Made by a program: the position numbers and the translations under genes. DNA of 64,000 bases from Vicinamibacterales bacterium (lineage in GTDB: Bacteria; Acidobacteriota; Vicinamibacteria; Vicinamibacterales; UBA8438): NCBI GenBank assembly GCA_965204175.1, contig OZ241978.1, forward strand, positions 3,814,164 through 3,878,163. Reading direction: 5' to 3'. The first letter of the stretch is position 1; each line of letters starts with the position of its first letter. This document shows positions 37,177 through 63,362 of the stretch, one piece after another. The notes beneath the pieces are model-generated. The model saw nothing but the letters and a program-made list of their open reading frames with translations, was not told the origin of the DNA and did not search any database.

Positions 37177-38088
37177 CTATGCACGCTTCCGCCTCCGGAC
37201 CGGCGCCGCCGCGGCGTCCACGTCGGCCGCATCCGCGGCCGCTCGCGCGGTGCGCCGGGTCGTCTTCTTCCCGCCCCGTTTCGCCGGCGCCTTGACCGGC
37301 TTCTTCTTCGATGCGCTGACCTGATCGAGGCTCTTGCGCAGCGCCTCCATCAGGTTGACGACCTTGGCCGGGGAATCGGCCTCCGTCTCGACCACCTCCT
37401 CGCCCGCGACCTTCGCGTCGATGATCCGGCGCAGCTCCGCCTGGTACTCGTCGGTGAACTCCGACAGGTCGAGATCGCCCGCGAAGGTGCCGATCACCTG
37501 GCGCGCGAGTTGCACCTCGGCGTCGTTGACGCTCTCCGGCAGATCCTCCAGCTCGTCGATCGCCGACATCCGGCGCACCTCGCTCGCGGCCCGCAGGGTG
37601 AACATCATCAGGCCCTTGTCGCGCGGCTGCACCGCGACCAGGTACTCGCGGCCGAGGAGCGCCAGCTTGCCGATGCCCGCCTTGCCCTCGAGCGCCTCGC
37701 GGAGCACCGCGAACGCCTCGGCCGCCACCTTGCCGTCCGGCGCGAGGTAGAACGGACGCTCGACGTAGATGGGATCGATCGACTCGACGTCGGCGAACCG
37801 CAGCAGGTTGATGATGCGGGTCGACTCGGGCTTCGCCTTGGAGATGTCCTCGTCGTCCACGACGACGTAGCGGCCCTTCTCGAACTCGTAGCCCTTGACG
37901 ATCTCGGACTTGTCGACCTCGCGGTCACACTCCTCGCACCACTTCTTCTGGCGGATGCGCGTCCGGCATTCCGCGTGCAACTGATTGAACCGGACCACGC
38001 CGGTCGTGTTGGTCGCGGGAAACACCCGTACCGGAACGGTCACCAGGCTCACCTTCAGGTGGCCCTTCCAAGTCGGACGTGCGGCCAT
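37177..38088 (-). CDS. ku: Non-homologous end-joining protein Ku
   Basis: MAARPTWKGHLKVSLVTVPVRVFPA...FNQLH...C.RIRQKKWCEEC... is a canonical bacterial Ku, with a Lys/Arg-rich C-terminal tail. Confidence 0.9.
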   Translation of the reverse strand: MAARPTWKGHLKVSLVTVPVRVFPATNTTGVVRFNQLHAECRTRIRQKKWCEECDREVDKSEIVKGYEFEKGRYVVVDDEDISKAKPESTRIINLLRFADVESIDPIYVERPFYLAPDGKVAAEAFAVLREALEGKAGIGKLALLGREYLVAVQPRDKGLMMFTLRAASEVRRMSAIDELEDLPESVNDAEVQLARQVIGTFAGDLDLSEFTDEYQAELRRIIDAKVAGEEVVETEADSPAKVVNLMEALRKSLDQVSASKKKPVKAPAKRGGKKTTRRTARAAADAADVDAAAAPVRRRKRA

Positions 38089-40579: not shown

Positions 40580-40656
40580 GCGCCCGTAGCTCAGCTGGAT
40601 AGAGCGCCGGGCTTCGAACCCGTAGGTCGGGGGTTCAAATCCCTCCGGGCGCGCCA
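40580..40656 (+). tRNA. tRNA-Arg (anticodon TCG), CCA encoded
   Basis: Hand fold: GCGCCCG TA GCTC AGCTGGATA GAGC G CCGGG CTTCGAA CCCGT AGGTC GGGGG TTCAAAT CCCTC CGGGCGC G CCA. There is one 27:43 mismatch. Confidence 0.85.
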
Positions 40657-40713
40657 AAGCGGTCACCGTTCGATGCCGCCGGATGACCCGTCGGCGCGCG
40701 AATCGTGGAGAAC

Positions 40714-40790
<77 letters not shown>

Positions 40791-48135: not shown

Positions 48136-48182
48136 CGCCCAAATCCGGCCATTAGTGGGCGGCTGAAAACCGGCCATTTCCG
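48136..48182 (+). repeat. Left terminal inverted repeat region of the inner IS21 (two copies of the ccggccatt core)
   Basis: Direct comparison with the reverse complement of 51471-51523. A further copy of aaatccggccattt lies at about 48411-48425 inside istA. Confidence 0.8.
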
Positions 48183-48235
48183 ATAGCGGCCCGAGACGTT
48201 GACGCGGGTCGGGAACTCGACGTTCCTGCCCCGGC

Positions 48236-49825: not shown

Positions 49826-50583
49826 ATCTCGTCGAACTCGACAAGGCGCTGCGCAAGCTGCGCCTTTCCGGCATGGCAAACGTCCTCGAGACGCGCCTGC
49901 TGCAGGCCCAGACCGAGCAGATGGCACCGATCGACCTGCTCGCCGCGCTCGTCTCCGACGAGCTCCAGCGCCGCGAGGACCGCCTGCTCGCCCGACGACA
50001 CAAGCAGGCCCGATTCCGAGACCCCGACCGCTCGCTCGACGGCTTCGACTTCGCCTTCAACAAGAAGATCAACCGCGCACTCGTCTTCGAGCTCGCCACC
50101 GCACGCTTCGTCGCCCAACGCGAAGACGTCCTCCTCATCGGCCAACCCGGTACCGGGAAGAGTCACCTCGCCCAGGCCATCGGCCGCGCCGCCATCCAGC
50201 AGGGCTATCGCGTCCTCTACCGCGAAACGCACGCCTTCCTCGAAGAACTCGCCGAGGCGACGCTCGCCGAGACCCGCAAGGACTACCTCGCCGAGCTGGC
50301 CCGCGCGCACCTGCTCATCATCGACGACCTCGGCATGCGCAAGCTGCCCCACACCGCCGCCGAGGACCTGCTCGAGCTGATCATGCGCCGCTACGAGCGG
50401 GCCTCGACGATGCTCACCTCCAACCGCCCGGTCGACGAGTGGGGGAAGCTGCTCGGCGACACCGCCGCGGTCACCGCGCTGCTCGACCGGCTCCTGCATC
50501 ACGCCCACGTGCTCAAGTGCGGGCCGCGCAGCTGGCGCACCCGGGTGCGGACCACCTCGGTAGTGTCGACGGGAGGCGCGTAA
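49822..50583 (+). CDS. istB: IS21-family helper ATPase IstB (inner element)
   Basis: Walker A GQPGTGKSHLA, Walker B LLIIDDLG, and ...LLELIMRRYERASTMLTSNRPVDEWG as in IstB. Confidence 0.9.
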   Translation: MNLVELDKALRKLRLSGMANVLETRLLQAQTEQMAPIDLLAALVSDELQRREDRLLARRHKQARFRDPDRSLDGFDFAFNKKINRALVFELATARFVAQREDVLLIGQPGTGKSHLAQAIGRAAIQQGYRVLYRETHAFLEELAEATLAETRKDYLAELARAHLLIIDDLGMRKLPHTAAEDLLELIMRRYERASTMLTSNRPVDEWGKLLGDTAAVTALLDRLLHHAHVLKCGPRSWRTRVRTTSVVSTGGA

Positions 50584-51084
50584 CCGGTGGGGAGTCGGTG
50601 GCTCATCCGGCGCTTTCGCACCGGGCCGCAGTCCGAACCCCGTGGGCACGTTTCCTCCACCCGTGCTCCGGTAGCCGGCGTTGCGCTGGCGTCCGAAGGC
50701 GTCCGCAGCGTTCCGCCAGTTGCCCCGGCGTTGCAAAACGGAGCGGAGGATTCGCGCGCGGCCGAGCGTCAACGCCCCATCCGGACGGGGTCCGCACGCG
50801 CGATAGCGCCGCCTCCAGGCTCGCCTGACGCAACAACCGCCACGGATCGTCCCCACGGTCACCGCGTGCGCCAGACGAGCCTTCCGCGGCACTCGAGTGG
50901 TCGCTCGACGCAACGCCCTTTCCACTTCGTCGTCGTCGACCACACCGTCCAGCCCAGCCCGGCCGTTCCGTCTCGCGAGGGTACCCCGGCCGGGCATGAC
51001 CAACACCGACGTCCGGCTCGCCCAGCGGTGGGTCTGTCGCCACGCTTGCGCCTCGATCGCGCGGCCGACCGCTTCCCCCTCGCT

Positions 51085-51098
51085 CCGTTACGTAACGG
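51085..51098. promoter_or_regulatory. Perfect 14-bp palindrome CCGTTACGTAACGG, 14 nt upstream of the passenger ORF
   Basis: Read directly from 51085-51098. Any operator function is speculative. Confidence 0.25.
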
Positions 51099-51112
51099 TG
51101 TAGCATGGCCGT

Positions 51113-51403
51113 GTGGCGTTGACGAACGCGGAGCGGCAGGCACGTTACCGGGAGCGGCGCAAGGCCGGCGAATCCCGGATCCGGTACCGTCGGCCAGCGG
51201 ACCGGAGATCGCGGCCACAGCAGTGGAACGACGCCGTGCAGACGCTCCTGCAGTTGCAGGAACAGTACCGGGAGTGGCGGGACGCGTTGCCGGAATCGCT
51301 TGCCGGGTCCGCGACCGCAGCGTTGCTCGAGCAAGTCTGCGATCTGGATCTGTCGGTACTGGAGGCTGTCGAGCTGCCCAGAGGCTTCGGGCGTGACGGC
51401 TAG
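51113..51403 (+). CDS. Small hypothetical protein carried between istB and the right end of the inner IS21 (possible passenger gene)
   Basis: 96-aa GTG-initiated ORF (ALTNAERQARYRERRKAG...LPRGFGRDG) with protein-like composition. It is the only plausible ORF in the roughly 940 bp between istB and the right IR. Confidence 0.4.
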   Translation: MALTNAERQARYRERRKAGESRIRYRRPADRRSRPQQWNDAVQTLLQLQEQYREWRDALPESLAGSATAALLEQVCDLDLSVLEAVELPRGFGRDG

Positions 51404-51470
51404 CGCGCCGGCAAACACGTTGCCAACAGAGGACGCCGTGAAGTAGATCTCAACTCCAGTCTCGGGCCGC

Positions 51471-51523
51471 CGGAAATGGCCGGTTTTGAGGTGCCCACAA
51501 ATGGCCGGTTTTGACCCGTCCAT
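51471..51523 (+). repeat. Right terminal inverted repeat region of the inner IS21
   Basis: cggaaatggccggttttgaggtgcccacaaatggccggttttgacccgtccat is the reverse-complement match to 48136-48182. Confidence 0.8.
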
Positions 51524-52535
51524 TGAGGTGCTGCTGCCGCTGGCCGGCGCGGTCTCCCCGCGTACGGTGCGCCGCTACGTCGCGGCGCTGCGCAGGCGTG
51601 TCACGTCGAAGGAGGCCTTCGTGCACCGCAGCATGGCTCCGGGGACGACGATGGAGGTCGACTTCGGCGAGTCGTGGGTCGATATCGCCGGGGCGCCGTG
51701 CAAGGTGAAGTACCTGGTGGCGACGCTGCCGTTCTCGAATGCGTACTTTGCCAAGGCGTACCCGGTCGAACGGCTCGAGTCGCTGCTCGACGGCATCGAG
51801 TCGGCGTTCGCTTACTTTGGAGGCGTGGTGGAGCGCGTGGTCCTCGACAACACCTCGCTGGCGGTCAAGGACATCCTGGCCGGTCGGGACCGGGTGCAGA
51901 CCGAGGCGTTCGCGGCGTTCCGTGGCGCGTATCCGTTCCGGGCCGAGTTCTGCGCGCCGGCCAAGGGCTGGGAGAAGGGAAAGGTCGAATCGGGTGTGAA
52001 GTATCTCAAGCGGAATTTCCTGGCGGGCCGGCGATTTTGTGACGACCTCGACTTCAACGAACAGTTGCAGGAGTGGATGGCGACGGTGGCCGACGTGCGC
52101 GTGCACGGGACGACGCACGAGCGTCTGATTGACCGGTTCGCGCGGGAGCGTGACGCGCTGGTTCCGGCGCCGCCGGGCCGGGCGTTCCGACTCGAGGCGC
52201 CGCTGACGCGGGTGGTGGCGACCGACTACCTGGTCACCGTCGACACGAACCGCTACTCGGTGCCGTTCACGCTGATCGGCCAGCCGGTCGAGGTGATGCG
52301 ACGCAACGGCTTCCTGCAGATGCGGCACCGCGGCCGGCTCGTCGCCACCCACCCGGTGCTCGGCGGCCGGCACTAGCTCCGGATCCTGCCCGAGCACGGT
52401 CCGGGGCCGATCGCCCGCAATGCACGCGTGCGCTACTCGACGGGCGGGCGCTCGACCGAGGCGGTCCCGCTCGACGTCGAGATCCGCGACCTCGCCTGCT
52501 ACGAGACGGCCTACGGCCTCGGGGGTGCGCAATGA
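51524..52535 (+). pseudogene. istA: Outer IS21 istA, 3' part (DDE domain), carrying an additional in-frame TAG at 52374-52376
   Basis: ...VLLPLAGAVSPRTVRRYVAALRRR...MEVDFGES...VATLPFSNAY...VVLDNTSLAV...GWEKGKVES... is IstA-like. After the TAG the same frame continues (LRILPEHGP...[19 protein letters not shown]) to a TGA that overlaps the istB ATG, as in intact IS21 elements. Confidence 0.8.
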
Positions 52536-53308
52536 CGTCTCCGCAGATGGTCCGGCTCGACGAGCACCTGCAGCGGCTGCGCCTGCATACGGTCCGCGAG
52601 CGGCTCGAAGCGCTGCTGCAGGAAGCCACGAAGAAGGAGTTGTCGTATGCCGACTTCCTCGACGGCCTGTTGACCGAGGAGGTGTCGGCGAAGACCGCCA
52701 AGCACGTCACGATGCGGACGAACCTGGCGCGGTTCCCGTTCATCAAGGGGCTCGACAGCTTCGACTTCGGCTACCAGCCCTCGGTCGACCGGAAGCAGAT
52801 CCAGAAGCTGAGCCTGTGCCACTTCGTCGAGCACGGGGAGAACCTGGTCCTGCTCGGTCCACCCGGGGTCGGGAAAACTCATCTGGCCGTGGGTCTCGGG
52901 CTCAAGGCGATCGAGCACGGCTACCGGGTGCTGTTCACCACGGCCGCGGCGATGCTGACGACGCTGACCAAGGCGCTGAACGAGGGCCGCTTCGACGACA
53001 AGCTGAAGGTCTTCACGATTCCGCGGCTTCTCATCATCGACGAGATTGGGTATCTGCCGATCGACCGGCCGGCGGCGACGCTGTTCTTCCAACTCATCAG
53101 CCGGCGCTACGAGCGCGGGCCGATGATCCTGACCAGCAACCAGAGCTTCGGCAGCTGGGGCGACGTCTTCGGGGACCGGGTGATCGCCAGTGCGATCCTC
53201 GACCGGATCCTGCATCACGCGACGACGATCAGCATCCGGGGCGATTCGTATCGGCTGAAGGACAAGCTGAAGTCCGGGGTGGTCAAGCCGACGACAGCGG
53301 GAGCGTGA
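52532..53308 (+). CDS. istB: IS21-family helper ATPase IstB (outer element)
   Basis: Walker [12 protein letters not shown], Walker [10 protein letters not shown], and [25 protein letters not shown]; 258 aa. Confidence 0.9.
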
Positions 53309-53490
53309 GCGATGGGAGCCTGTGGACGCTGCCGGCGATGTGGACGCGCAGACGCGACCACATCGCCTTGGACAGGCCGCAGACGGCCTGCCCACAGCCC
53401 CCACAGGCACTCAACTTATCGATGTTTTCAACCAGGGGTGGGGGAATTTTCGATGACCGCGGGTGGGGGAATTTTGAATGACCGTTGACA

Positions 53491-53692
53491 TCCGTGGGCC
53501 GACCGTCCCGTCCGAGTGCTGCATCCTCCACTCCCGCGGCAGGTACTCCTTCACTGCCCGCCACGCATCCCATGAGAGGTCCCGCGCCAGATACGTCACA
53601 CCGAAGCCTCCGGACCCCAGCACGCACTCGATCTCAAGCTCGTCCAGGCGCATTCCGCTCGGCAGCTCCTCACCCTCACCCGCATCCGCCAT
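53491..53692 (-). pseudogene. 5' fragment (about 67 codons) of a second Hanks-type Ser/Thr kinase gene, truncated at the outer IS21 right end
   Basis: MADAGEGEELPSGMRLDELEIECVLGSGGFGVTYLARDLSWDAWRAVKEYLPREW..DGTVGP parallels residues 1-73 of the kinase at 53772-56390. Similarity stops at about 53490, where IS sequence begins. Confidence 0.75.
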
Positions 53693-53771
53693 CTCCAGCC
53701 TTCTCGTCGGTCACACGGGCGACGCGCTAAGACACCGCATCGCAAGTGGCCACTGATGTCGACCGCGGCTG

Positions 53772-56390
53772 TCAGTTCCGCGTGCTCACGGTTATCGTGT
53801 AAGTTCCGCCGCTACCTTCTCCGACAATATCAGGATCACCATCAAGATCCCTCGCCTCGATTAGATACCTTCCCGACACGGGGAGCCTCTCAAATAGGGC
53901 GCCGCCGAAAGACTGATTGATACTACGGCCTTCTGGCGACTTCAGCTCATAGGTCATTGCAATATCATCAGAAAATTCCACAAAAACTCTTTGTCCTGCA
54001 GTACCCTCGAAAGTCCAGACCTCGACTCCCGGCCCATCGATTCCACGGACGGGCGTGTCGAATGCGAGAGGGCGTGCAGCGCGCACAACTATCGTGTAGT
54101 CACCTCGGGGTCGTTCGTCCCAATCAATATCGACGACGTACCGTCCCGACAACGGTAGCGTCTCCACGATTGGGAGAATGGGAAACCCGTAAGCCAGGTA
54201 CCTTTCAGTCGGCGAGTGCAGGTGGAGTCGCGGGAAAAGGGAATCGCCGCCAACAACACTCACACTGATTGTTTGTCCCGCAGAACCTTCGAAAGTCCAA
54301 CCGTCTGTGCCTGGTCCACCGCGGGATGGCACGTTCAGAGCAAGGGATCCCCTCTCTGTCGTGCGGTTTGTCGTGCGGTCTGTCGTGCGGTCTGTCGTGC
54401 GCACGACGACTTCGTAGCTGCCTCCGACGGAGAGATTGTCCCCCGCAATGACGAAATAACGGCCAGACACGGGTAGTACTAGCTCAGAAGGCAATGCGGA
54501 ATAGTCGGGTGAAAGTAGGCCGCCGCCCTCCACGGTGATCGCTTGCCCTGCGACGCCCTCGAAAAACCAAACGTGTAGCGGCTCGCCGGGATTCCACCTG
54601 CCTCGCGATGGCGTACCCAAGGTGAGCGACGACATCGATCTCTCCTGGAACACAACCAAGCCGAACTCACTCGAATCGCTGCTCAATGCCCGCACGCTGA
54701 ACAGATATTGTCCAGATGCTGGCAAAGTTTGCCTCGTTTCCAGTACCCTATCCTGAGCGATGACTTCACCAACCGGCGACATTACTTGAATCGCGACGTT
54801 TTCGCCTCCCCCGCCCAGGAGCACGCTCTGTCCTGCCGTACCTTCAAAGGATCGGAGCACAGTAGCGGGCGCATCACCACCCACCGTGCCAGAGTTGGGT
54901 GGATCAGAGGGGGCCACGTTGGGCACAATGGGAGTAACGTTGCGTCCAAGGTCCCGGCGGAGCGCCGCTTCGCTCTCGCCGGTCAGATAGCCCGTTGCGG
55001 TGACGCTTTGCGCCGCCTGCCATTCCCGCAGCACCGCCCGCGTACCGGGTCCAAACATTCCGTCCAGTGGGCCGACGTCAAACCCGGCCGCCACCAGGGC
55101 CGCCTGAAGCAAACGCCGCTCGTTGCGGTCCAGTCCCAGCGCCTCCTCCTCCTCCTCCTCCGCAGCCGGCGAGAGTGCCTCCCGTGTCGGAGGCCGCTCG
55201 ACTACCGCTGCTTCTCTGTCGCTTTCCGGATCCGGCTCACGGACGGATCCACCACCCTCACCGTCGTCGATTCGATCGGCGTCGACCGCAACCGGCTCGC
55301 CACCTCCACTCGGCAGTGCCGTCTCGCCAGCCGAGGCTGTTTCCACCCGACCGCCTCGTTCTTCCAGAACCGCCCCATTCCGAGAACTCAGGGTCATGGC
55401 CAGCACCACGCCGACAATTCCGACGGCCGCCGCGCCGGCCAGCCACCACTGCCACGGCGACGCCGACGTTTCTCCTCGGGAAGAACCGCCTGGTTCGAGG
55501 GGCTTCCCCAAGATCGGACCCGGAGGGGCGTCCAGCAACCGCTGCCACGCCTCCAGATCCTGCGGGCGATCCTCCTGGTACACTGCCATCGCCGCGCCGA
55601 CCGCCGTCGCCAAACCGGAACTCACCTTCTGCGGCGCCACCTCCACCAGTGGCCGCAGCCGGTCTTCCTGGGTCCGCTCCGTAGCCGCTTTCGGCACCCC
55701 ACCGCTCAACGCGCAATAGGCCAGAGCCCCCAGGGCATAGATGTCCGTCCACGGTCCCTGACGATCGCCCGGCGGATACTGCTCAATCGGTGCGTATCCC
55801 GGCGTCAACACCGACGCCAGTGTGCCCGACTGCCCCCCCATCGCATGACGCGCCGCCCCGAAGTCAATCAGAACCGGCGAGCCATCTCGGCGCACCACCA
55901 CATTCGCTGGTTTGATGTCCCGATGCAGCAGTTCCGCCGCGTGAACCTCCTTCAGCCCCTCCGTCAACGCGTCCAGCACCTCCCGTACCCGATCCTCCGA
56001 GAGCGCACCCGCCGCCTCCACCTGCGACGCCAGCGTCCGCCCCTCCACGTATTCCATCACCATGTAGGCGGTTCCTAGCGCCTCGAACACTCGATGCACC
56101 TGCACGATGTGCGGGTGCTTGAAACGCGCCAGAATACGCGCCTCCTCCAGAAACCGCTCCAGGCCCCATTGATAGTCCTCGGCGTTGCCGCCCGTCCACG
56201 GACCTACCGTCCCGTCCTGCCGCCGAGTTCCCCACTCCCGCGGCAAGTACTCCTTCACCGCCCGCCACGTCTCCAGCGACAGATCCCGCGCCAGATACGT
56301 GATCCCGAAACCGCCCGAACCCAGCACCCGCTCGATCTCGAGCTCGTGCAGCCGCGTCCCCGGAGCCAGAGCGTCACCTGCGTTCGTCAT
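53772..56390 (-). CDS. Hanks-type Ser/Thr protein kinase, TM, peptidoglycan-binding domain and four PPC-like (pre-peptidase C-terminal-like) repeats
   Basis: Kinase motifs LGSGGFGITYLARD, AVKEY, HRDIKPANVV, DFGAAR and GYAPIEQ. TM WWLAGAAAVGIVGVVLAM. PG_binding_1-like LLQAALVAAGFDVGPLDGMFGPGTRAVLREWQ. Four repeats follow the pattern (W/S)FEG(T/S/V)AGQ...LP(A/V/L)SG(Q/R)Y...Y.(I/V)(V/T)V. AAGGAG SD upstream. Confidence 0.85.
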   Translation of the reverse strand: MTNAGDALAPGTRLHELEIERVLGSGGFGITYLARDLSLETWRAVKEYLPREWGTRRQDGTVGPWTGGNAEDYQWGLERFLEEARILARFKHPHIVQVHRVFEALGTAYMVMEYVEGRTLASQVEAAGALSEDRVREVLDALTEGLKEVHAAELLHRDIKPANVVVRRDGSPVLIDFGAARHAMGGQSGTLASVLTPGYAPIEQYPPGDRQGPWTDIYALGALAYCALSGGVPKAATERTQEDRLRPLVEVAPQKVSSGLATAVGAAMAVYQEDRPQDLEAWQRLLDAPPGPILGKPLEPGGSSRGETSASPWQWWLAGAAAVGIVGVVLAMTLSSRNGAVLEERGGRVETASAGETALPSGGGEPVAVDADRIDDGEGGGSVREPDPESDREAAVVERPPTREALSPAAEEEEEEALGLDRNERRLLQAALVAAGFDVGPLDGMFGPGTRAVLREWQAAQSVTATGYLTGESEAALRRDLGRNVTPIVPNVAPSDPPNSGTVGGDAPATVLRSFEGTAGQSVLLGGGGENVAIQVMSPVGEVIAQDRVLETRQTLPASGQYLFSVRALSSDSSEFGLVVFQERSMSSLTLGTPSRGRWNPGEPLHVWFFEGVAGQAITVEGGGLLSPDYSALPSELVLPVSGRYFVIAGDNLSVGGSYEVVVRTTDRTTDRTTNRTTERGSLALNVPSRGGPGTDGWTFEGSAGQTISVSVVGGDSLFPRLHLHSPTERYLAYGFPILPIVETLPLSGRYVVDIDWDERPRGDYTIVVRAARPLAFDTPVRGIDGPGVEVWTFEGTAGQRVFVEFSDDIAMTYELKSPEGRSINQSFGGALFERLPVSGRYLIEARDLDGDPDIVGEGSGGTYTITVSTRN
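54357..54404 (-). repeat. 12-nt tandem repeat (tgtcgtgcggtc x about 4) encoding TDRT/TNRT/TERG units between PPC repeats 2 and 3
   Basis: Read directly: tgtcgtgcggtt tgtcgtgcggtc tgtcgtgcggtc tgtcgtgcgcac. The protein reads RTTDRTTDRTTNRTTERG. Confidence 0.85.
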
Positions 56391-56406
56391 CGCTGCTTCT
56401 CCTTCG

Positions 56407-56838
56407 CTACTGCCGCCGCCGGGGTTCCTTCTGGATCAACTCTCCCGTCTCAGGAATCCGCTCCAGACCCTGGGCCAAATCCAGCACGTCTTCCCCAGCC
56501 GGCGGCGAGCCGGCATCGCCGTGACTCGCGTTGCCGTCGCCCGAGGGAGACGCAACATCGTGCGGACACCGCGCATCGAGCTGATCGACGCGCATCTCGT
56601 AGTCGCCGAAGCGGATGTGATCGGTCGGCTCGACCAATTGCTGACGGATCGCCCGCCAAGCGCCGCTGTTCAGCACGAACGTCCCGTTCGTCGTCGCGCA
56701 GTCGGTAACGTGCAGACGCCCGGCGGAAACCCGTACGACTTCCGCGTGCCGCCGGGACACGCTCGAATCGTCCAGCCGCACGTCGCACGATCTCTCTCGA
56801 CCCACGGTGTACGTTCTCACTCTCGACATCTCGTCCAC
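56407..56838 (-). CDS. Small FHA domain protein
   Basis: YTVGRERSCDVRLDDSSVSRRHAEVVRV..LHVTDCATTNGTFVL...IRFGDYEMRV is an FHA core. Start at 56838 (GTG) or 56829 (ATG). Confidence 0.85.
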   Translation of the reverse strand: MDEMSRVRTYTVGRERSCDVRLDDSSVSRRHAEVVRVSAGRLHVTDCATTNGTFVLNSGAWRAIRQQLVEPTDHIRFGDYEMRVDQLDARCPHDVASPSGDGNASHGDAGSPPAGEDVLDLAQGLERIPETGELIQKEPRRRQ

Positions 56839-56847
56839 CCTGGCCGC

Positions 56848-57708
56848 TTACAGGAGCGACAGCAGCAGGTTCACGGTGATGGAACCGCTGCTATCGCGCA
56901 CCAGCTGGCCGCGGCCGGCCGACGCCACGCGCTCCAGAAAGGAATCGGTCCGGGACAGACCGCGACCATTGTTCACCAGGACGGTAGACACCCGGCCATC
57001 CCCCGCTGCCGAAAACGACGCCGCTTCCGAGACAGCTTGCTCTACTTCCTCCCGATAGGCCGGGTTGTCGGTGATCAACACGATCACTCGCTGCTCCGCC
57101 GTCGAACGCCAGCTCATGCGGGTGGCTTCCCGCAATCCGAGAAGGAACGCCTCCGCCGCATCGGGATTTCCACCGCCACCCCTCCCTATGCGGATACTCA
57201 ATCCGTTGACGAAGCGCCGCAACGCGTCCTGTGCGCCGCCAGAATCGTTGATCTCCCGCAGATCGAAACTGGTAACGGGTCTGTCGTAGTCTCGATCGCC
57301 GAACGCCACCACCCCCACGCCCAAGCTTGGAGTCAAGCCGACCAGGAGCCGGCTCAACTGGTCGACCTCGGCCTTGAGACCGGCAATCTGCTCGCCCATG
57401 CTGCCGGTCACGTCGAGCGCGATGACCAGGTCCAGATGCGGAAAGCTCGCCGCGGGAGGGGCGGGAGGCGCCGGCGGACAGGGCGGGCAGGGCTCAGCTG
57501 GCGGGCAGGGCTCGGCCGGCGGGCAGGGCAAGACCGGCGGACACTCCGGTGGATCCGGCGCCGCCATGACCACGACCGGACTGCGGGCGGTGTTCGGAAA
57601 GTAGGGAAAGATGACGATCGCAATCAGGATGAACGCGCCGAGCGCCGACGCGAACAGGTCCAGCGCCGACATGCTGAAGATACTGATCTCGCGGTTTCGC
57701 TTCTTCAT
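56848..57708 (-). CDS. Membrane-anchored vWA domain protein with an ExbD/TolR-like N-terminal anchor and a Cys/Pro-rich linker
   Basis: MKKRNREISIFSMSALDLFASALGAFILIAIVIF is a basic N-terminus with an EI(S/N)I-like motif and a TM containing Asp. The linker is PECPPVLPCPPAEPCPPAEPCPPCPPAPPAPP. vWA MIDAS DLVIALDVTGSMG and a later VIVLITDNPA. Confidence 0.8.
   Translation of the reverse strand: MKKRNREISIFSMSALDLFASALGAFILIAIVIFPYFPNTARSPVVVMAAPDPPECPPVLPCPPAEPCPPAEPCPPCPPAPPAPPAASFPHLDLVIALDVTGSMGEQIAGLKAEVDQLSRLLVGLTPSLGVGVVAFGDRDYDRPVTSFDLREINDSGGAQDALRRFVNGLSIRIGRGGGGNPDAAEAFLLGLREATRMSWRSTAEQRVIVLITDNPAYREEVEQAVSEAASFSAAGDGRVSTVLVNNGRGLSRTDSFLERVASAGRGQLVRDSSGSITVNLLLSLL
57482..57535 (-). 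repeat. 18-nt tandem repeat (ggcgggcagggctcRgcY x3, with degenerate flanking copies) encoding the (A/V)(E/L)PCPP units
   Basis: Read directly at 57482-57499, 57500-57517 and 57518-57535. Confidence 0.85.
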
Positions 57709-57734
57709 GGTCGTACCCGTATCGGGTCGTCAGG

Positions 57735-59027
57735 TCAGGGCCGGACGGATTGCACCGCCAGCACCGGCAGGTCGCCGAGTTGGACGTCGTCGCCCGGAGC
57801 AATCGTCCGCGGCTTGAACGGTTCGAGCGCTACACCGTTGACGCGCGTGCCGTTGCTGGAATTTAGATCCTCGATGTAGAAGCGGCGACGTTCGCGCGTC
57901 ACGCGGGCGTGCCGACGGGAGATGGTGGGGTGGCCAACGACACTGTCCACGAGCGGCGCGTGGCTGCCGACCACGAACCCGCCGGCGCCCCGACCCAAGC
58001 CGGTGTCGCGTACCAGGATCTGCGGCGCCCCTTCGGCAGCCAGCACCAGCACCGGAGCGGCCGCGGAGTTAACTACCCTCGGCCCTGTAGCTGCACGACG
58101 GCGACCGGCCGGCCGACCCATATGGTGGCGGATGCTGGTCGACATCTTCTCCACGATCCGCACCACCTCCCGCCGCGGCTTGCGCAACGCCAGCAGCAGC
58201 GCCGGCAGCGCCACGGTACCGACGCCAACCGCCAGCCACAGCGCCCGGTTCGCGGCCGAGACGGCCGCGGCCGTCTCATCACCGAACGCACCCGCGGCAT
58301 CGGCTGCGGCTGCAGCAGCAGCGGCAGCCCGCGCCGCATCGTCATCACAAGGTGCATCCGTCGTATCGAGGCTGATGTCATCGAATCTGTCCAGCTCACG
58401 TACCGCCTCGGTGATGCGGGAAGCCATGAACATTCCCTGCGCCGACAGGAACCCCGCGGTGTTCACGCCGATGACGACGCCGCAGTCGTTGATCAGCGGC
58501 CCGCCGCTGTTGCCGGGATTGATGTCGGCGCTGTGTTGAATGATGTCCAGCTGCCGGCCGGCGCGTCCGTCCCAGGAGTTCGTGTGCAGACGCCCGATGA
58601 CGCCCTCGGTCGACGTCACATCGTCCGCCGGGCTGATCTGGTCGGCCACGCCCGGATACCCCAACGCCCATACCCTCTCGCGGGTCCGCAACTCCATCGT
58701 GCCGAGCGTGACCGGCGGCAGCGTCAGGCCGTCCACCTCCAGCACCGCCAAGTCCAGCGCCTCGGACGACCACGCGACCCGCGCACGCCGCCTTCCGCCG
58801 GTATGCGCCGATGCGACCTCAAACGTCGTCTGGCCGTCCACGACGTGCTGGTTGGTGAGTACCCACCCGGGCGCGACCACCGATCCGCTACCGGTGCCGC
58901 TGTCGCCGACGACCCGGACGACGCTCCGTTCCACGGCGTCGAGCGCCGTGGCGGGTTGGGCGACAGCCCACCCGCATGTCCAGGACAACGAGCATGCAAC
59001 GGTCGATGCAATCGCAACGCTTCGCAT
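57735..59027 (-). CDS. Trypsin-like serine protease (catalytic triad present), TM, C-terminal FHA domain
   Basis: Signal peptide MRSVAIASTVACSLSWTCGWAVAQ. Catalytic motifs: His in VLTNQHVV, Asp in LDLAVLEV, Ser in NPGNSGGPLIN. TM ALWLAVGVGTVALPALLLAL. FHA VVGHPTISRRHARVTRERRRFYIEDLNSSNGTRVNG. GAGGAAGGGG SD upstream. Confidence 0.85.
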   Translation of the reverse strand: MRSVAIASTVACSLSWTCGWAVAQPATALDAVERSVVRVVGDSGTGSGSVVAPGWVLTNQHVVDGQTTFEVASAHTGGRRRARVAWSSEALDLAVLEVDGLTLPPVTLGTMELRTRERVWALGYPGVADQISPADDVTSTEGVIGRLHTNSWDGRAGRQLDIIQHSADINPGNSGGPLINDCGVVIGVNTAGFLSAQGMFMASRITEAVRELDRFDDISLDTTDAPCDDDAARAAAAAAAAADAAGAFGDETAAAVSAANRALWLAVGVGTVALPALLLALRKPRREVVRIVEKMSTSIRHHMGRPAGRRRAATGPRVVNSAAAPVLVLAAEGAPQILVRDTGLGRGAGGFVVGSHAPLVDSVVGHPTISRRHARVTRERRRFYIEDLNSSNGTRVNGVALEPFKPRTIAPGDDVQLGDLPVLAVQSVRP

Positions 59028-59060
59028 GAACCCCTTCCTCTTCGGACTCTGCGGCGAACG

Positions 59061-60506
59061 TCAAACGTTGTCGCCGAGGCGGCCTGCTTCCGTAGCGTCG
59101 AGCGTCACGGTGAGCGTCAGGTCGCCCACCCGCAGCACGCCGCCGTGGCACAACGCGACGGCGGCGCCCGGCGTCAGACGAACGTCGTCGAGCGTCGTCC
59201 CATTCGTTGAATGCAGATCCTCTATGAACACTGCACTCTCGCGGGCAGACAGGCGGAAGTGTCGGCGGGACACCGCGGTATGGTCGAGTACCAAGGCGCT
59301 CTGGAACGGATTGCGCCCGACCACGGCGCCACCCGCGTCCGCGATGGCGCTGCCCGGGACGCGCACCGCGATCGGGTGACCTTCCGCATCGGCACCGTTG
59401 AGAAAGACCGACGGGACGGCGCTCGCCAGACGGTCCTGCGCAGCTCGATCGGCAAGATCCTCTTGCGCGGCTTGTGCCAGGGTCTCCGCCGTTACCTGCT
59501 CCTGCCGCGCCTTCGCAACCGAGCGCCGAGCGGCCAACCAGAACAGCATCCCGGCCGTTGCTACTCCAGCCGCACCCAGACCTGCCCACCGGAGGTACCG
59601 CGCCCTGTCCGCTGCCGCCCGCTCCTGCGCCTCGGCAGACTCTTCCTCCGCCAACCGTCGCGCTTCGACCGCCTCGGCGGCATCGACCTGCGCCGCCTCG
59701 GCTGTCGACTCGGCCTGTTCCCGCAGATCGGCCTCGGCGTCGGCCGCCGCTTCGGCCCGGCGTCGCCTTTCCGCCTCCGCCGCGGCGCGTCGCTCCGCAT
59801 CGGCGGCCGCCGCTTCGGCCACCGCAGCCCGCTCCGCATCGGACAGACAGGGCCTGTCAGCGGTGGTCGCTGCCAAGCCAACCGCGCTGAAGCGCGCGAG
59901 CAGCCACACCCCTGGCACGGCGCGATCGCTGCCGGAGGACGCCAGGTTCGGGTCGCGGTCGTCGACCACGACACCGATGATCTCGCCGCAGATATTGAGC
60001 AACGGCGCACCGAAGTTGCGCTGCCAGTCGTTGAACGCGTCGTGCCGAACGAACCCTGGATCGGATGTCGCTGCGCCAACCTCGACGGCTAGCACACGGC
60101 CGGGCACCAGCGCTATGGTCCCTGATCTCGCGTCGCGCGTGGCGGCATGGACTTCCTGCGGCTCCTGTGCCGAGACGCTTGCGAAGGGGTACGGAGGCGC
60201 GGGCAGGCCCGGTACAGCCAGCAACCCGAGACCCAGCCTCTCGTCGGCGGCCACGAGGCGTCCCTCATGCTCGGTTCCACCGACGTCGGTCACCACGAGG
60301 TTGGCGATGTCGGCGTCGATGCTCGTGATGACCTGCGCCTCGCCGGCGACGAAGCCGAGCCCCACGAGCGCGTCTGTCGTCCCCGCCGCATTCGCAGCGC
60401 GCACGACGACCACGCCGGCCACCGACGGCGTCTGCGCAGCCACCGGAGCCACGACCACACTGCCGGCCACCCACACGAGTAGGCCGGCCCGCAACATCGT
60501 CACCAT
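59061..60506 (-). CDS. Degenerate trypsin-like domain (triad apparently lost), Ala/Glu/Arg coiled-coil, TM, C-terminal FHA domain
   Basis: Signal peptide MLRAGLLVWVAGSVVVAPVAAQ. The protease-fold remnant has RNFGAPLLNICGEIIGVV in place of GNSGGPL, and no His or Asp at the aligned positions. Coiled coil AERAAVAEAAAADAERRAAAEAERRRRAEAAADAEADLREQAE.... TM WAGLGAAGVATAGMLFWLAA. FHA VVGRNP...VSRRHFRLSARESAVFIEDLHSTNGTTLDD. Start at 60506 (GGAGG SD) or 60608. Confidence 0.8.
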   Translation of the reverse strand: MVTMLRAGLLVWVAGSVVVAPVAAQTPSVAGVVVVRAANAAGTTDALVGLGFVAGEAQVITSIDADIANLVVTDVGGTEHEGRLVAADERLGLGLLAVPGLPAPPYPFASVSAQEPQEVHAATRDARSGTIALVPGRVLAVEVGAATSDPGFVRHDAFNDWQRNFGAPLLNICGEIIGVVVDDRDPNLASSGSDRAVPGVWLLARFSAVGLAATTADRPCLSDAERAAVAEAAAADAERRAAAEAERRRRAEAAADAEADLREQAESTAEAAQVDAAEAVEARRLAEEESAEAQERAAADRARYLRWAGLGAAGVATAGMLFWLAARRSVAKARQEQVTAETLAQAAQEDLADRAAQDRLASAVPSVFLNGADAEGHPIAVRVPGSAIADAGGAVVGRNPFQSALVLDHTAVSRRHFRLSARESAVFIEDLHSTNGTTLDDVRLTPGAAVALCHGGVLRVGDLTLTVTLDATEAGRLGDNV

Positions 60507-60611
60507 CCACCCTACCTCCGTGCTACAGGTAGTCTTCCGAGAGTTTCCGACGCCTCCTTGCTTGCCGTCCCAGGCACCCTGCGCTACGGAAGTCTCGTGC
60601 GTCACCACCTC

Positions 60612-61469
60612 CTATCGGGCGATTCGCCGCGTCGGCGCCGTGAGCCGTTCAAATCGGCGCCGTACGGCAGCCAGTGCAAGGTGTCGATAGACGATGACGC
60701 TGGCGTTGTCCTGCGACGGCCTGTCCGCCGCTGCTACGGCCTGCAAGAGACGCAACACCATCGCTTCAGCCGACCGCTGCCCGCTGCACAGGCACCGGAT
60801 CTGCTCCTGCGCAACGGTTTCGAGGCCGTCGCTTGCCAGCACGATCCGATCGCCGATTCCGAGCCGGACCGAGGCGCCATCGTCTACCAGCGCCAAGCCC
60901 TCGCCAGTCAGCGCGGACTGCAACTGGTGCGCCGCTCCCCCCCTTGCCTCCTCCGGCGTCATGCGACCAAGCCGTACCTGATTCTCCAGAACGGGCCGCA
61001 TCGAATGGTCCGCGTTCAGGCGGTCGATCCCGGCGTCTTCTCCGTCCACCCCTCCACGTACGCGCCACAGCGGTGAATCGCCCACGCTGATCCACTGCGC
61101 TGTCCCGTCGTCGGTCACGACGCACCCCACCAGGGTGCAGCCCATGCCTGCGTAGCGCGCATCGTCAGCCCCGCAGCGCCCGACCTCCGCATTGGCCACG
61201 TCAAGCGATGCGCGTAGCCGCGCGGTGATGCCGCCGCTCGCTTCCCGAAAGGTGTCGACGAAGGTCGACACGGCCAACTGGCTCGCTCGGGCGCCCCCCC
61301 GGTGCCCGCCCATGCCATCGGCCAGCACCAGCAGCAGATCGCAGCCGTCCGGGTCCGGGTCCCGGAATCCGATAGTCCAATAGTCGTCCTCCTGATAGTC
61401 ACGGGCGCCGGCAATCTGGCCGGCCGCGAGCAAGTGGTCGAAGCCCTGCAGCCCAACGGAATTCCGCAC
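60612..61469 (-). CDS. PP2C-family Ser/Thr protein phosphatase
   Basis: ARDYQEDDY, LLVLADGMGGHRGG, GCTLVG, ISVGDSPLW and VLASDGL motifs. The GTG start lies 1 nt after the upstream FHA gene's stop. Confidence 0.9.
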   Translation of the reverse strand: MRNSVGLQGFDHLLAAGQIAGARDYQEDDYWTIGFRDPDPDGCDLLLVLADGMGGHRGGARASQLAVSTFVDTFREASGGITARLRASLDVANAEVGRCGADDARYAGMGCTLVGCVVTDDGTAQWISVGDSPLWRVRGGVDGEDAGIDRLNADHSMRPVLENQVRLGRMTPEEARGGAAHQLQSALTGEGLALVDDGASVRLGIGDRIVLASDGLETVAQEQIRCLCSGQRSAEAMVLRLLQAVAAADRPSQDNASVIVYRHLALAAVRRRFERLTAPTRRIAR

Positions 61470-61470
61470 G

Positions 61471-62184
61471 TCAGTCCCCGTTCGATTCGTCTTCCCACGA
61501 GAAACCGGCGCCGCACAGCGGTACGAACCGGAGCACGGTGTTTCCCATCTGCACGTGCGTCAACGGCTCGATCTCGCGCGACTCCAACACCGGCTCGTCG
61601 CTGACGTAGGTGAGGTTCGTCCCGTCGCCGCTCTGGACGTAGAACTTCCGTCCGCGCGGTTCGTACGTGATCTTGCAGTGATTGGTCCGGGAGATCATTC
61701 GGTCGCCGTAGTCGAGCGACACCCGTTGCGTTCGGTCCCGGCCGATGGAGTTGATGCCAATCCCTAGCGTCGCAACATGACCCTTGCCCGGGCCCTCGAT
61801 GATCGTCAGCCAGCCGACCGGCGGATCGGCCATCGGATCGTCTTCGACCCGCACAGTGCGGGCCGCCGCCCCGGCGTCATCACCGCTACCTGCACCTTGT
61901 TGTCGATTGCCGTGGAATACCTCGGTGTGCCCTGAGTCCCGGCCTGGCGGATCCTGAACCCGCTTCTCGGTCGGGGCTCCGAAACGCCCGGCATCCCGGG
62001 GGGAGGTGCGTGGTGCGGTCGGGACGCCCTCGCGAACCCCGGTGGGCCTGGCGATGTCCGCCGTACGCCGGTTTGACCAACTCCCGCGCCCGCCGCCACC
62101 CACCTGATCGGTGGGTTCGGACCGCTCAACGAGCTCCGTGCTCTCGTCGATGATGTTGCCGTCCGCATTCCGCTCTAACGGCAT
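61471..62184 (-). CDS. FHA domain protein with a disordered Gly/Arg/Pro-rich N-terminal half
   Basis: GWLTIIEGPGKGHVATLGIGINSIGRDRTQRVSLDYGDRMISRTNHCKITYEPRGRKFYVQSGDGTNLTYVSDEPV is an FHA core. Start at MPLERN (62184) behind a GGGAGG SD. Confidence 0.8.
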   Translation of the reverse strand: MPLERNADGNIIDESTELVERSEPTDQVGGGGRGSWSNRRTADIARPTGVREGVPTAPRTSPRDAGRFGAPTEKRVQDPPGRDSGHTEVFHGNRQQGAGSGDDAGAAARTVRVEDDPMADPPVGWLTIIEGPGKGHVATLGIGINSIGRDRTQRVSLDYGDRMISRTNHCKITYEPRGRKFYVQSGDGTNLTYVSDEPVLESREIEPLTHVQMGNTVLRFVPLCGAGFSWEDESNGD

Positions 62185-62275
62185 GCCGTTCCTCCCTAGT
62201 GCGCGCGAACTCCTTACGCCGAAACCCCACCGCGCGCACGCGCCCTTCAGACCGGCTGCTCCCTGCACGGCGAGC

Positions 62276-63067
62276 CTATGTGGGCCGTTCGTAGAGGCGA
62301 TTGACGAGGTTCCTCAGGCAGTACAGCCCCACCCGGTTGAGCGCGCCCTCCTCGCGGCCCTGCACCACGTGCATCGCAAACATGAGCACCGCCGCCTGCA
62401 GCAGGGCGAGCAGCGTCGTATAGAACGCGACGCCGAGCTTGCCCGTCAGGCTCGTCATCAGTTCCGGCCCCAGCTCCGCCAGGTTCGCGTTCGGATCGAT
62501 GCCCGCGAACAGCTGGCCCGCGTCTCGCAGCGCGAACGCAATGCCAACGACCGTGCCGATGAAACCGAGCGTCGGAATCAGCCACACCAGGTACCGGAGC
62601 AGGTTGTAGCGCAGCTCTGTCTCGTGGTGGTAGAGCTCCATCGACGAGTTGAACATCGCGTTGACCTGGTCGACGGACCCGCTGCTCTGGAACTGGAGCA
62701 TGGCACCCGTCAACAGGCGCTGCAGCCAGTACTGCTCCTCCGCAGCCGATTGGCGCACGCGGCGGTAATAGGGGGCGATGTCCTCCTGGCGCAGGACGGT
62801 CTTGTCGTCTTCGGGAAGCAGACTTAGTCGGAGCTGATCTTCCTCCCTGTCCCCCACCCGATGGCGGACCAGCAACTCGCCCGCCGCCACGAAGAACACG
62901 ATCCACATCACGTTCTGGATCGTGAACGGATAGGTGAAGAGCTCTGTGTTCCGATCCAGGAGCAGATCGGCTGCATCGCTCTCGGCGGGCACCAGCAGCG
63001 ATAGAAGCCCTACCCAGACGAAACCGGCTACGAACGAACCGGTCAGCGTGACGACCGGCATGGGCAT
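62276..63067 (-). CDS. MotA/TolQ/ExbB-family proton-channel protein (4-TM MotA-like topology)
   Basis: LVWLIPTLGFIGTVVGIAFAL and LGVAFYTTLLALLQAAVLMFAMH correspond to the conserved C-terminal helix pair of MotA/ExbB/TolQ. There are two N-terminal TMs and a long cytoplasmic loop. ATG at 63067 behind a GGAGA SD; the ORF extends to 63115. Confidence 0.8.
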   Translation of the reverse strand: MPMPVVTLTGSFVAGFVWVGLLSLLVPAESDAADLLLDRNTELFTYPFTIQNVMWIVFFVAAGELLVRHRVGDREEDQLRLSLLPEDDKTVLRQEDIAPYYRRVRQSAAEEQYWLQRLLTGAMLQFQSSGSVDQVNAMFNSSMELYHHETELRYNLLRYLVWLIPTLGFIGTVVGIAFALRDAGQLFAGIDPNANLAELGPELMTSLTGKLGVAFYTTLLALLQAAVLMFAMHVVQGREEGALNRVGLYCLRNLVNRLYERPT

Positions 63068-63113
63068 TCGTTCATCTCCTGACAATGCGCGACGGTCTGC
63101 GCGCAACCGGCAC

Positions 63114-63362
63114 AAGACGGGGCACCGCAGGTCGAAGTTCTGGCCTAACCAATTGCGGGTACTGATGACCGCCGCCGCCTACGTCCTGATGCAGCAAATG
63201 TGCCTGCGCGCCGCGCGCGCCCGCATCCAGGTGACGTGGCTGCACGACCGCCCGCTCAAGTTGGGCGCTCACGTCGCCGTCTCCGTCCGGCGCATCGTGT
63301 TGCACCTACTTCGCAGCACGCCGGACCGCGACGACTGGCAACGCATCGCCGTCGCTCTCGGC
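63114..63362 (+). pseudogene. 3'-terminal remnant of an IS1380-family transposase gene
   Basis: RSKFWPNQLRVLMTAAAYVLMQQM......IQVTWLHDRPLKLGAHVAVSVRRIVLHLLRSTPDRDDWQRIAVAL matches the conserved C-terminal block of IS1380-type DDE transposases (ANQ.RL.L...AY.L...LR.KLLK.GA.V..S.RR..L.L). No upstream catalytic part is present. Confidence 0.6.

Follow-up and report, generated by a model that had tools for sequence, protein, structure and literature searches.

A conserved gene cluster that sets a MotA/ExbB-like protein and a membrane-tethered vWA protein among Ser/Thr kinase, phosphatase, FHA and trypsin-FHA genes in a Vicinamibacterales bacterium

Gene content and layout of the cluster

We describe a cluster of eight genes in a 64,000-nt stretch of DNA (the window) from a Vicinamibacterales bacterium (GCA_965204175.1, contig OZ241978.1, positions 3,814,164-3,878,163 of the forward strand), and propose that it encodes one trans-envelope machine built around an unusual proton motor of the 5:2 type and gated by threonine phosphorylation, a reading to which we give a probability of roughly one half. 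The eight open reading frames (ORFs), g1 to g8, lie within positions 53772-63115 on the minus strand in a single orientation. From g1 to g8 the intergenic gaps are 91, 1, 105 (3 if the GTG at 60608 opens g4), 33, 26, 9 and 16 nt, as given by starts at ATG 62184 for g2, ATG 60506 or GTG 60608 for g4, 59027 for g5, 57708 for g6, 56838 for g7 and 56390 for g8, all of which are backed by the lengths of homologues. The common orientation and these gaps had been claimed in an earlier note made from the sequence and were reproduced here from the ORFs, and the one correction concerns g1, as the note had let the cluster run to 63079; that position is a GGA codon within the Shine-Dalgarno region and no start, and the gene begins instead at ATG 63067, with AGGAG 8 nt upstream (63080-63076) and a database copy (P0121) that likewise has 263 residues. 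The genes are listed below with their predicted locations and with the E-values of Pfam domain calls scored against the gathering cut-offs.

62276..63067, minus strand: g1, ExbB/TolQ/MotA-family membrane protein of 263 amino acids (MotA_ExbB, 7.5e-8)
61471..62184, minus strand: g2, soluble protein with a C-terminal FHA domain (FHA, 1.5e-6)
60612..61469, minus strand: g3, cytoplasmic PP2C-type Ser/Thr phosphatase (PP2C_2, 3.7e-9)
59061..60506, minus strand: g4, signal peptide, dead trypsin fold, Ala/Glu-rich coiled coil, transmembrane (TM) helix and cytoplasmic FHA domain (Trypsin_2, 6e-8; FHA, 1e-13)
57735..59027, minus strand: g5, signal peptide, HtrA/MarP-like trypsin, Ala-rich linker, TM helix (residues 263-281) and cytoplasmic FHA domain (Trypsin_2, 1.5e-26; FHA, 5e-17)
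56848..57708, minus strand: g6, N-terminal trans-pore-like helix, Cys/Pro-rich linker and periplasmic vWA domain (VWA, 2.8e-7)
56407..56838, minus strand: g7, small soluble protein with an FHA domain and a tail that is acidic or disordered (FHA, 6e-15)
53772..56390, minus strand: g8, Hanks-type Ser/Thr kinase, TM helix (residues 317-335), acidic linker, PG_binding_1 domain and four PPC-like repeats (Pkinase, 3e-33; PG_binding_1, 1.5e-10)

The main domains named by the earlier note thus all pass the Pfam cut-offs, and what does not pass is its call of four PPC repeats at the C-terminus of g8, which match PPC weakly (E 0.002, below cut-off) and are homologous to the clear PPC region of the kinase at locus L053 (6e-18). 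None of the eight proteins reaches an equivalog cut-off in NCBIfam, where g1 and g6 have no match of any kind.

Hydropathy finds four membrane segments in g1 and one each in g5, g6 and g8, and the same scan finds none in g2, g3 and g7. In g4 the N-terminal signal-like stretch alone exceeds the threshold, and the second anchor, at residues ~355-378 of the 515-residue ORF and following the coiled coil, is a Gly/Ala-rich, sub-threshold segment read by eye. From these features both protease folds, the vWA head and the PG-binding and PPC regions would lie outside the inner membrane, and the kinase domain, the PP2C and all of the FHA domains would lie inside. This is the topology that had been predicted, and both hydropathy and the AlphaFold2 (AF2) models are consistent with it; a periplasmic vWA head in particular is expected because a membrane helix and the Cys/Pro linker precede the domain. 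Scans of the cluster for consensus promoters and terminators returned matches at chance level and so carry no information on operon structure.

Conservation of gene content and order

A scan with the g1 alignment over one genome per species gave 234 matching places, 80 of which were fetched with 10-kb flanks and had the window domains mapped onto their six-frame ORFs. The fetched loci come from Gemmatimonadota, Acidobacteriota, Gammaproteobacteria, Binatia, Latescibacterota and Alphaproteobacteria, and searches with g5 and with g1 each returned large families. A block of FHA, MotA-like, FHA, PP2C, inactive and active trypsin-FHA, TM-vWA and kinase gene(s) recurs in Gammaproteobacteria, Acidobacteriota, Binatia, Latescibacterota and Alphaproteobacteria, so that the co-occurrence across phyla for which the earlier note had proposed a check is observed. 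The locus L001, whose g5 homologue is 61% identical, has the identical eight genes in the identical order, and L003, with a g5 homologue at 43% identity, has the same genes set between housekeeping genes. Among the 43 loci outside Gemmatimonadota, L001 and L003 included, the neighbours of the motor gene were counted as follows.

g2-type FHA gene directly downstream of the motor gene: 40/43 loci
PP2C gene second downstream of the motor gene: 36/43 loci
g7-type FHA gene directly upstream of the motor gene: 35/43 loci
vWA gene present: 37/43 loci
Two trypsin-FHA genes: 20/43 loci
One trypsin-FHA gene: 15/43 loci
Two or more kinase genes: 22/43 loci

Kinase genes total 89 in these loci. In Latescibacterota the order is permuted (trypsin pair, vWA, FHA, motor, FHA, PP2C, kinases) and the gene set is the same. 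Gene order shared across phyla to this extent is far beyond chance. Clustering of the unassigned ORFs of the fetched loci yielded no further gene family shared across phyla, and the eight families of the window therefore define the system.

In 74 of the 80 loci a vWA gene is found no more than 9 kb from the MotA-like gene; of the six others, three are on contigs that end nearby (L038, L061, L083) and three have no vWA match (L053, L064, L078). It is a single gene in the window and at most loci, with pairs at L052, L070 and L071 only. The phage collection gave no match and the plasmid collection one. Surroundings rich in insertion sequences (IS) are found also at L001 and L087, and many other loci have housekeeping neighbours. 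Among the carriers are both planktonic lineages that live freely (SAR86 and Pseudohongiella, for example) and cultured organisms (Halioxenophilus sp. WMMB6 and strain LSUCC0112). Fourteen loci (L012, L014, L017, L023, L026, L027, L033, L034, L050, L051, L064, L078, L081 and L083) come from bins that seem, to judge by their names, to be sponge-associated, and these carriers, together with the eukaryote-like repeats of the proteins (ankyrin and Sel1 in kinases, leucine-rich repeats (LRRs) in Gemmatimonadota), suggest a possible host-association signal.

The MotA/ExbB-like protein and its vWA partner

The AF2 model of g1 is confident (predicted local distance difference test score 88.8), and its 49 best fold matches in the PDB are all ExbB, TolQ, ZorA or MotA chains. 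Identity of g1 across phyla is 60-83%, with the closest relatives found by the one-genome-per-species scan in metagenome-assembled genomes (MAGs) of Vicinamibacterales and Terriglobia. Two membrane motifs, GTVxGI and FYTTLLAL, are invariant, and their threonines, kept in 12 and in 32 aligned homologues, are inferred to line a pore. The cytoplasmic domain of g1 has a further invariant Thr, in LLPEDDxT.

The partner of g1 would be g6, which opens with the helix SALDLFASALGAFILI, near-unchanged across phyla and carrying an invariant Asp. Residues 1-45 are near-invariant in 79 homologues of all phyla and read REI(N/S)IF(S/G)MSALDLFASALGAFILI, Asp17 being kept in every one of these locus homologues, in 34 aligned proteins and in 104 representatives, a range that spans Gemmatimonadota, Acidobacteriota, Gammaproteobacteria, Binatia and Latescibacterota. 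The ExbD-like helix that the earlier note had seen on the vWA protein is thus borne out as a near-invariant N-terminal helix with a mid-membrane Asp. With these first 45 residues as the query, 726 representative proteins were retrieved at E<=1e-3 from among 1.84 billion, the match always being N-terminal, and the heads of the 104 longer helix-bearing representatives contain a vWA domain in 58 cases and are mostly coiled-coil in the rest. The AF2 model of g6 shows a helix at residues 11-36, disorder at 37-90 and a confident vWA fold at 92-286; the linker holds 5 Cys and 23 Pro within 56 residues, and the vWA domain has a DxTGS motif resembling a metal ion-dependent adhesion site (MIDAS), with integrin beta-I, SpaC and the CMG2 vWA domain as its PDB fold matches (~3e-9). 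A profile search of PDB sequences with the helix returned nothing but insect Orco channels, at an insignificant E of ~0.4, and these matches were not used.

No member of the ExbD, MotB or OmpA families was found with Pfam among the eight window proteins or the called genes of L001, L003, L087 and L088. A core consisting of a MotA/ExbB-like protein and a vWA protein fits the motor of a TolQ-like protein and a vWA protein with a trans-pore helix that was predicted in 2025 (PMC12204202).

The phosphorylation genes

Each of the four FHA families retains the residues that bind phosphothreonine: Gly-Arg, Ser-Arg-x-His and Asn-Gly(-Thr). In g2 these residues (GR, SR and H) are conserved in 43 homologues, and the protein's N-terminal region is unconserved and presumably disordered. 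The FHA domains score best in NCBIfam against FhaB/FipA, below the cut-off, and the VI_FHA model lies far below its own. The phosphatase g3 is Stp1-like (NCBIfam Stp1_PP2C, 6e-30, below the equivalog cut-off), and the g8 kinase has its Lys (VKE), HRD and DFG motifs. Kinases of the cluster share a common catalytic domain and differ in their ectodomains, which include PG_binding with PPC, Sel1, ankyrin, FGE-sulfatase and PEGA, and as many as five of them can stand in tandem. No transcription factor or nucleic-acid effector is found among the cluster genes.

At L067 a 1030-residue fusion of trypsin, kinase and ankyrin domains (15614-18703) adjoins a full cluster, and provides a direct link between protease and kinase. 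A second apparent fusion, of vWA and FHA domains in the metagenomic protein P0321, was considered as a Rosetta-stone link and rejected, because its FHA domain would fall on the wrong, periplasmic side of the membrane; the FHA stands behind the vWA C-terminus just as g7 stands behind g6, and the fusion is probably the product of a lost stop codon or a frameshift.

The live/dead trypsin-FHA pair

The two trypsin-FHA proteins differ at the catalytic triad as the earlier note had stated, with g5 keeping His, Asp and Ser, in the window copy and in all g5-type homologues, and g4 reading S/G/F at the three positions and so having lost all three catalytic residues. Ser and Asp are lost in every g4-type homologue from every phylum that has the pair, and the pairing of a live with a dead protease is ancient. 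The binding residues of the g4 FHA domain are conserved. In g5 a conserved LALRKPRQ stop-transfer motif follows the TM helix. The TM helices of g4 and g5 show no conserved polar motif of the TonB/TolA kind and have moderate hydrophobic conservation only. Neither protein qualifies as HtrA, DegP or DegS, as both lack a PDZ domain and the NCBIfam scores for HtrA, DegS and MarP are far under the cut-offs.

A separate subfamily of stand-alone, active trypsin-FHA proteins of ~500 residues is found at L002, L004 and L005 (10001-11527 in each). Its neighbours are an amidase gene (at L002 an unannotated gene of 622 codons) and sometimes a small FHA gene, with no motor, vWA, PP2C or kinase gene.

Minimal and variant loci

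In the 39 Gemmatimonadota loci the vWA gene is always near the motor gene, and the pair is usually accompanied by a PG_binding_1 protein that is anchored in the membrane and has LRRs or a kinase domain. Genes for FHA proteins, PP2C and proteases hardly ever occur there. A minimal form of this kind (L010 8139-12041 and 38 other loci, L007-L057) consists of a TM/PG_binding_1/coiled-coil protein with plant-type LRRs, the motor and a longer vWA protein, and an extra upstream gene conserved only in Gemmatimonadota (for example L010 7195-8448) has a weak SH3_3 match.

Two further loci carry the helix on a different head. In the cultured organism Rhizobium leguminosarum BT01 (L086; megaplasmid pRlBT01d, NZ_CP125637.1 154345-173064) the genes encode an FHA protein, a kinase-PDZ protein, a PP2C, a second FHA protein, a motor protein 44.5% identical to g1 and a helix-bearing protein that has the same N-terminal helix and a coiled-coil/beta-rich head instead of the vWA, together with proteins of 180 and 1610 residues without a Pfam match and an X-TM-FHA protein. 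L088 (9118-19013) encodes a helix/coiled-coil protein, a motor protein, FHA, PP2C, a PEGA-PKD protein, a TolC-like OEP, a membrane-fusion protein, a kinase-FHA fusion and another FHA protein, and its TolC-like and membrane-fusion genes hint at an extension to the outer membrane in some versions. What stays constant among the variants is the FHA/PP2C/kinase set with the motor and a helix-bearing partner.

Comparison with described systems

The known 5:2 proton motors, MotAB, ExbBD, TolQR, AglRQS, GldLM and ZorAB, serve rotation, import, envelope integrity, gliding and defence. We know of no 5:2 motor under the control of a Hanks-type kinase, and found none in the literature searched. Zorya ZorAB resembles the motor proposed here in being a MotAB-like 5:2 unit outside flagella or the Ton/Tol systems, with ZorA among the fold matches of g1, and differs in that the cluster has no ZorA tail, no peptidoglycan-binding B subunit of the ZorB type and no ZorC or ZorD. 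PADLOC gave no system-level match, generic matches to the kinase and trypsin domains being all that it returned, with none for g1-g4, g6 and g7.

The signalling genes have precedents of their own. In the PpkA/PppA/Fha1 pathway of the type VI secretion system (T6SS; H1-T6SS of Pseudomonas aeruginosa) a membrane Hanks kinase with a periplasmic domain acts together with a PP2C and an FHA scaffold to control an envelope machine at the post-translational level, and the periplasmic part of PpkA has a vWA domain; unlike that pathway, the cluster has no T6SS structural genes and has a predicted proton motor, four FHA modules and proteases. The actinobacterial fhaA-fhaB-pstP-rodA-pbpA-pknA-pknB cluster is likewise a conserved operon, with a pair of FHA proteins, a single PP2C and a membrane kinase that senses the wall, whereas here there is no RodA/PbpA or PASTA domain, the sensor parts are PG_binding_1 and variable repeats, motor, vWA and protease genes are added and the hosts are diderm. 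The TerY-P triad is defined by a soluble TerY-type vWA protein, a PP2C and a kinase; the cluster has the PP2C and the kinase and lacks the soluble vWA. As here, vWA, Ser/Thr kinase, PP2C and FHA co-occur in TerY-P, Deinococcus DRA0331-0334 and archaeal ArnA/ArnB, but in those systems the vWA is cytoplasmic and itself a phospho-target or partner, while in the cluster it follows a membrane helix and a Cys/Pro linker and has the motor subunit as its invariable neighbour.

Two published systems share architectural features with the cluster. One is the Agl-Glt gliding machinery of Myxococcus xanthus, for which docking on the pentamer of the TolQ-like AglR has been predicted for GltG, through a cytoplasmic FHA domain that adjoins its TM helix (PMC11761067). 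The Agl-Glt module resembles the cluster in joining a TolQR-type motor, an FHA-TM membrane protein and a vWA adhesin. It differs in that GltG is built as FHA-TM-periplasm, whereas here a periplasmic protease precedes the TM and the FHA, in its separate TolR-like subunits and outer-membrane vWA protein, and in having no kinase/PP2C or protease pair within the module. The other, compared here by its described features, is the family predicted from AF3 models in which the vWA protein, through a trans-pore helix, is the inserted dimer of a 5:2 motor with a TolQ-like protein and for which force transduction was proposed (PMC12204202, MBE). Shared with that family are a TolQ/ExbB-family gene without tolR, exbD or motB and beside a membrane-tethered vWA protein, a conserved Asp in the N-terminal helix of the vWA protein and a conserved Thr in the channel protein. 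Unlike it, with its mainly heterologous vWA pairs, the present cluster usually has one vWA gene, and the family is described from Proteobacteria and Verrucomicrobia, whereas the loci here are largely from Gemmatimonadota, Acidobacteriota, Latescibacterota, Binatia and marine Gammaproteobacteria. Its description mentions no kinases, PP2C, FHA domains or proteases. The statement of the earlier note that no described system adds a MotA-like channel is thus overtaken where it concerns the pairing of a TolQ-like protein with a vWA protein, and stands for the phosphorylation and protease parts. We found no publication on the whole cluster, or on an ExbB/TolQ/MotA protein with FHA and PP2C, in a literature search whose coverage of subscription journals was limited. 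No description seems to exist of the added parts: the pair of soluble FHA proteins, the PP2C, the receptor kinases (one to five) with exchangeable sensors and the live/dead trypsin-FHA pair.

A model for the cluster and its alternatives

We propose a model that starts from what was observed: which domains are present, the state of the catalytic and binding residues, the shared order of the genes, the unvarying helix and the lack of a gene of the ExbD type. The g1 protein would form a channel as a pentamer, and g6, replacing ExbD, TolR or MotB, would be inserted as a dimer, with the N-terminal helix and its invariant, presumably proton-binding Asp placed in the pore. The Cys/Pro-rich stalk of g6, possibly disulfide-linked, would carry the metal-dependent vWA head in the periplasm. 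The membrane kinases would report periplasmic or wall ligands and phosphorylate either themselves or the motor at cytoplasmic sites, and the four FHA modules, those of the soluble g2 and g7 and those in the cytoplasmic tails of g4 and g5, would read or dock on the resulting phosphothreonines until the PP2C g3 resets the system. The periplasmic output would be force or rotation through the vWA head together with cleavage by the FHA-anchored protease pair. The supply of energy by a stator-like unit, which the earlier note had raised, is strengthened by the Asp-bearing helix of g6 and by the finding of no ExbD, TolR or MotB gene. The chain of events that the same note had put forward, from a kinase that senses the wall through phosphothreonine to recruited proteases, is conjectural, as is its suggestion of a defence role. 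We infer the 5:2 assembly, the direction of phosphorylation, the FHA ligands, the protease substrates and the biological role, and for the last we favour envelope or cell-wall surveillance and remodelling. A sharper version, in which an energy-coupled and phosphorylation-gated periplasmic device grips its target with the vWA dimer, cuts it with the FHA-docked pair and is timed in its firing by the kinase array, is a tentative extension that we think improbable in this full form.

If this sharper version were correct, the motor would be the first of the 5:2 type shown to be under Ser/Thr phosphorylation control, and the ATP-free periplasm would gain a device for proteolysis or remodelling that depends on energy and is licensed by a signal. 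The cluster would tie Ser/Thr signalling in bacteria to mechanics driven by the proton-motive force, provide a candidate for energy-dependent events in the periplasm and offer an experimental handle on the predicted vWA-type motors. Its cultured carriers are tractable hosts.

Several observations weigh against the model. The fold matches of g1 are modest (E ~3e-3, TM-score ~0.5), and its profile finds nothing at E<=1 among PDB sequences. The g6 helix may resemble the 'EINIVPLLDV' stretch of Escherichia coli TolR; too short for such methods, it retrieved no ExbD, TolR or MotB from the PDB in a profile search, and Pfam found no ExbD match in the N-terminal 60 residues. The contacts of g1 with g6, and of the FHA modules with their targets, are presumed from genes and monomer models, and the operon structure from gene spacing only. 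At residue ~354 the window g5 has Ser in place of the Arg of the Gly-Arg motif present in 27 of 30 homologues, so that this FHA domain may bind phosphothreonine weakly or not at all. Some loci have a single trypsin-FHA gene or none, and the Gemmatimonadota form usually does without FHA, PP2C and protease, which indicates that the motor works without the phosphorylation layer and that this layer could be a loosely coupled regulator.

Among the alternatives, a Zorya-like system for anti-phage defence or conflict would have the motor and kinase array sense foreign molecules or a perturbed envelope and use the FHA-tethered proteases as effectors. The receptor part is variable and multiplied in the manner of immune receptors (Sel1, ankyrin, LRR, FGE-sulfatase, PPC), the DNA around the window cluster, L001 and L087 is IS-rich, the kinase resembles the defence kinases mad6 and PD-T4-6 at the level of the domain and the g1 fold also matches ZorA. 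We nevertheless consider such a function unlikely, given that PADLOC recognised neither a system nor a specific component among g1-g4, g6 and g7, that the core is unusually conserved for defence genes (the 60-83% identity of g1), that many loci have housekeeping neighbours, that no conserved nuclease, NADase, pore-forming or other suicide effector lies nearby and that the mobile-element collections gave the single plasmid match and none from phage.

A device for surface adhesion, motility or host interaction, in which the vWA head transmits the pull of the motor to a partner that is external or in the outer membrane, as in TonB/TolA or Agl-Glt/CglB, and the kinases and proteases do no more than tune it, draws on the best fold matches of that head, integrin beta-I and pilus adhesin domains, and on the fact that vWA heads are adhesion modules. 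The force-transduction proposal (PMC12204202), the Agl-Glt precedent of a TolQR-like motor with an FHA-TM protein and a vWA adhesin (PMC11761067), the many carriers that are sponge-symbiont MAGs by name and have kinases with eukaryote-like repeats, and the TolC-like and membrane-fusion genes of L088 point the same way. This role is doubtful in our view, as the vWA-type cluster has no conserved partner in the outer membrane, the g6 linker has only ~55 residues and free-living planktonic bacteria (SAR86, Pseudohongiella) are among the carriers.

It is also rather improbable that the kinase/PP2C/FHA set, the protease pair and the motor/vWA pair are two or three independent modules that travel together. 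Such independence would account for the Gemmatimonadota form, for the stand-alone trypsin-FHA proteins and for the kinase/PP2C/FHA/vWA sets known without a motor in Deinococcus and archaea (ArnA/B), yet two small FHA genes and the PP2C gene directly flank the motor gene in 35-40 of the 43 loci, in four phyla and even where blocks are permuted, and the variants with other B-subunit heads still hold FHA, motor, FHA/PP2C and kinase together.

Insertion sequences and genomic surroundings

The features that border the cluster are the following.

51471..53488, plus strand: IS21-family copy forming the left border, with a partial IstA (51486-52376) and an IstB-like ATPase (52532-53308) (Mu-transpos_C_2, 1.4e-18)
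53489..53692, minus strand: remnant of a second, paralogous kinase, first ~68 codons (184-nt direct repeat with the 5' end of g8)
63132..63347, plus strand: C-terminal fragment of a DDE_Tnp_1_4 transposase forming the right border (Pfam 2.1e-9, profile positions 351-426 of 435)

The kinase remnant is a ninth gene, so that the set of eight in the earlier note was incomplete. Downstream of g8 a 184-nt direct repeat has 76% DNA identity to the 5' end of g8 (56195-56378), and the translation of 53489-53692 matches g8 residues 1-65, with the Gly-loop and the VAIK-type Lys kept, before it diverges beside the IstB gene. The IS21 insertion cut off this second kinase after ~68 codons. The cluster thus once had at least two tandem receptor kinases, and the IS elements damaged an array that already existed and did not assemble the cluster. 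At the other end, the C-terminal transposase end alone abuts the 5' end of g1, which indicates a deletion or rearrangement junction at ~63120. The description of the cluster as IS-bounded accordingly applies to this genome, where IS21 borders the left side and a transposase fragment the right, and the IS elements are secondary, the neighbours in other genomes being housekeeping genes.

A chance juxtaposition by IS activity, which IS21 and other transposase remnants on both sides might suggest, is refuted by the synteny: dozens of genomes from several phyla share these genes in this order, many of them without IS neighbours, and the IS21 copy did not bring in a kinase but cut short a tandem one that was already there.

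The GC content is ~0.59-0.61 over 53000-55000, which spans the PPC region of g8 and the IS junction, in agreement with the lower GC that had been reported for part of the cluster. Positions 48140-53488 hold two IS21-family copies, one of which seems complete (IstA 48236-49825, IstB 49822-50583), and the second of which has the partial IstA and the IstB at 52532-53308, an ORF with Walker motifs that was identified by reading its sequence. A pair of 43-nt inverted repeats lies at 48140-48182 and 51471-51513. Further away in the window are an adjacent pair of tRNA genes at ~40.6-40.8 kb (40580-40787, plus strand), a third tRNA gene at 25706-25778 (plus strand) and a gene for Ku, of non-homologous end joining, at 37177-38088 (minus strand). 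The IS-rich stretch with the cluster, downstream of the tRNA pair, might be an island.

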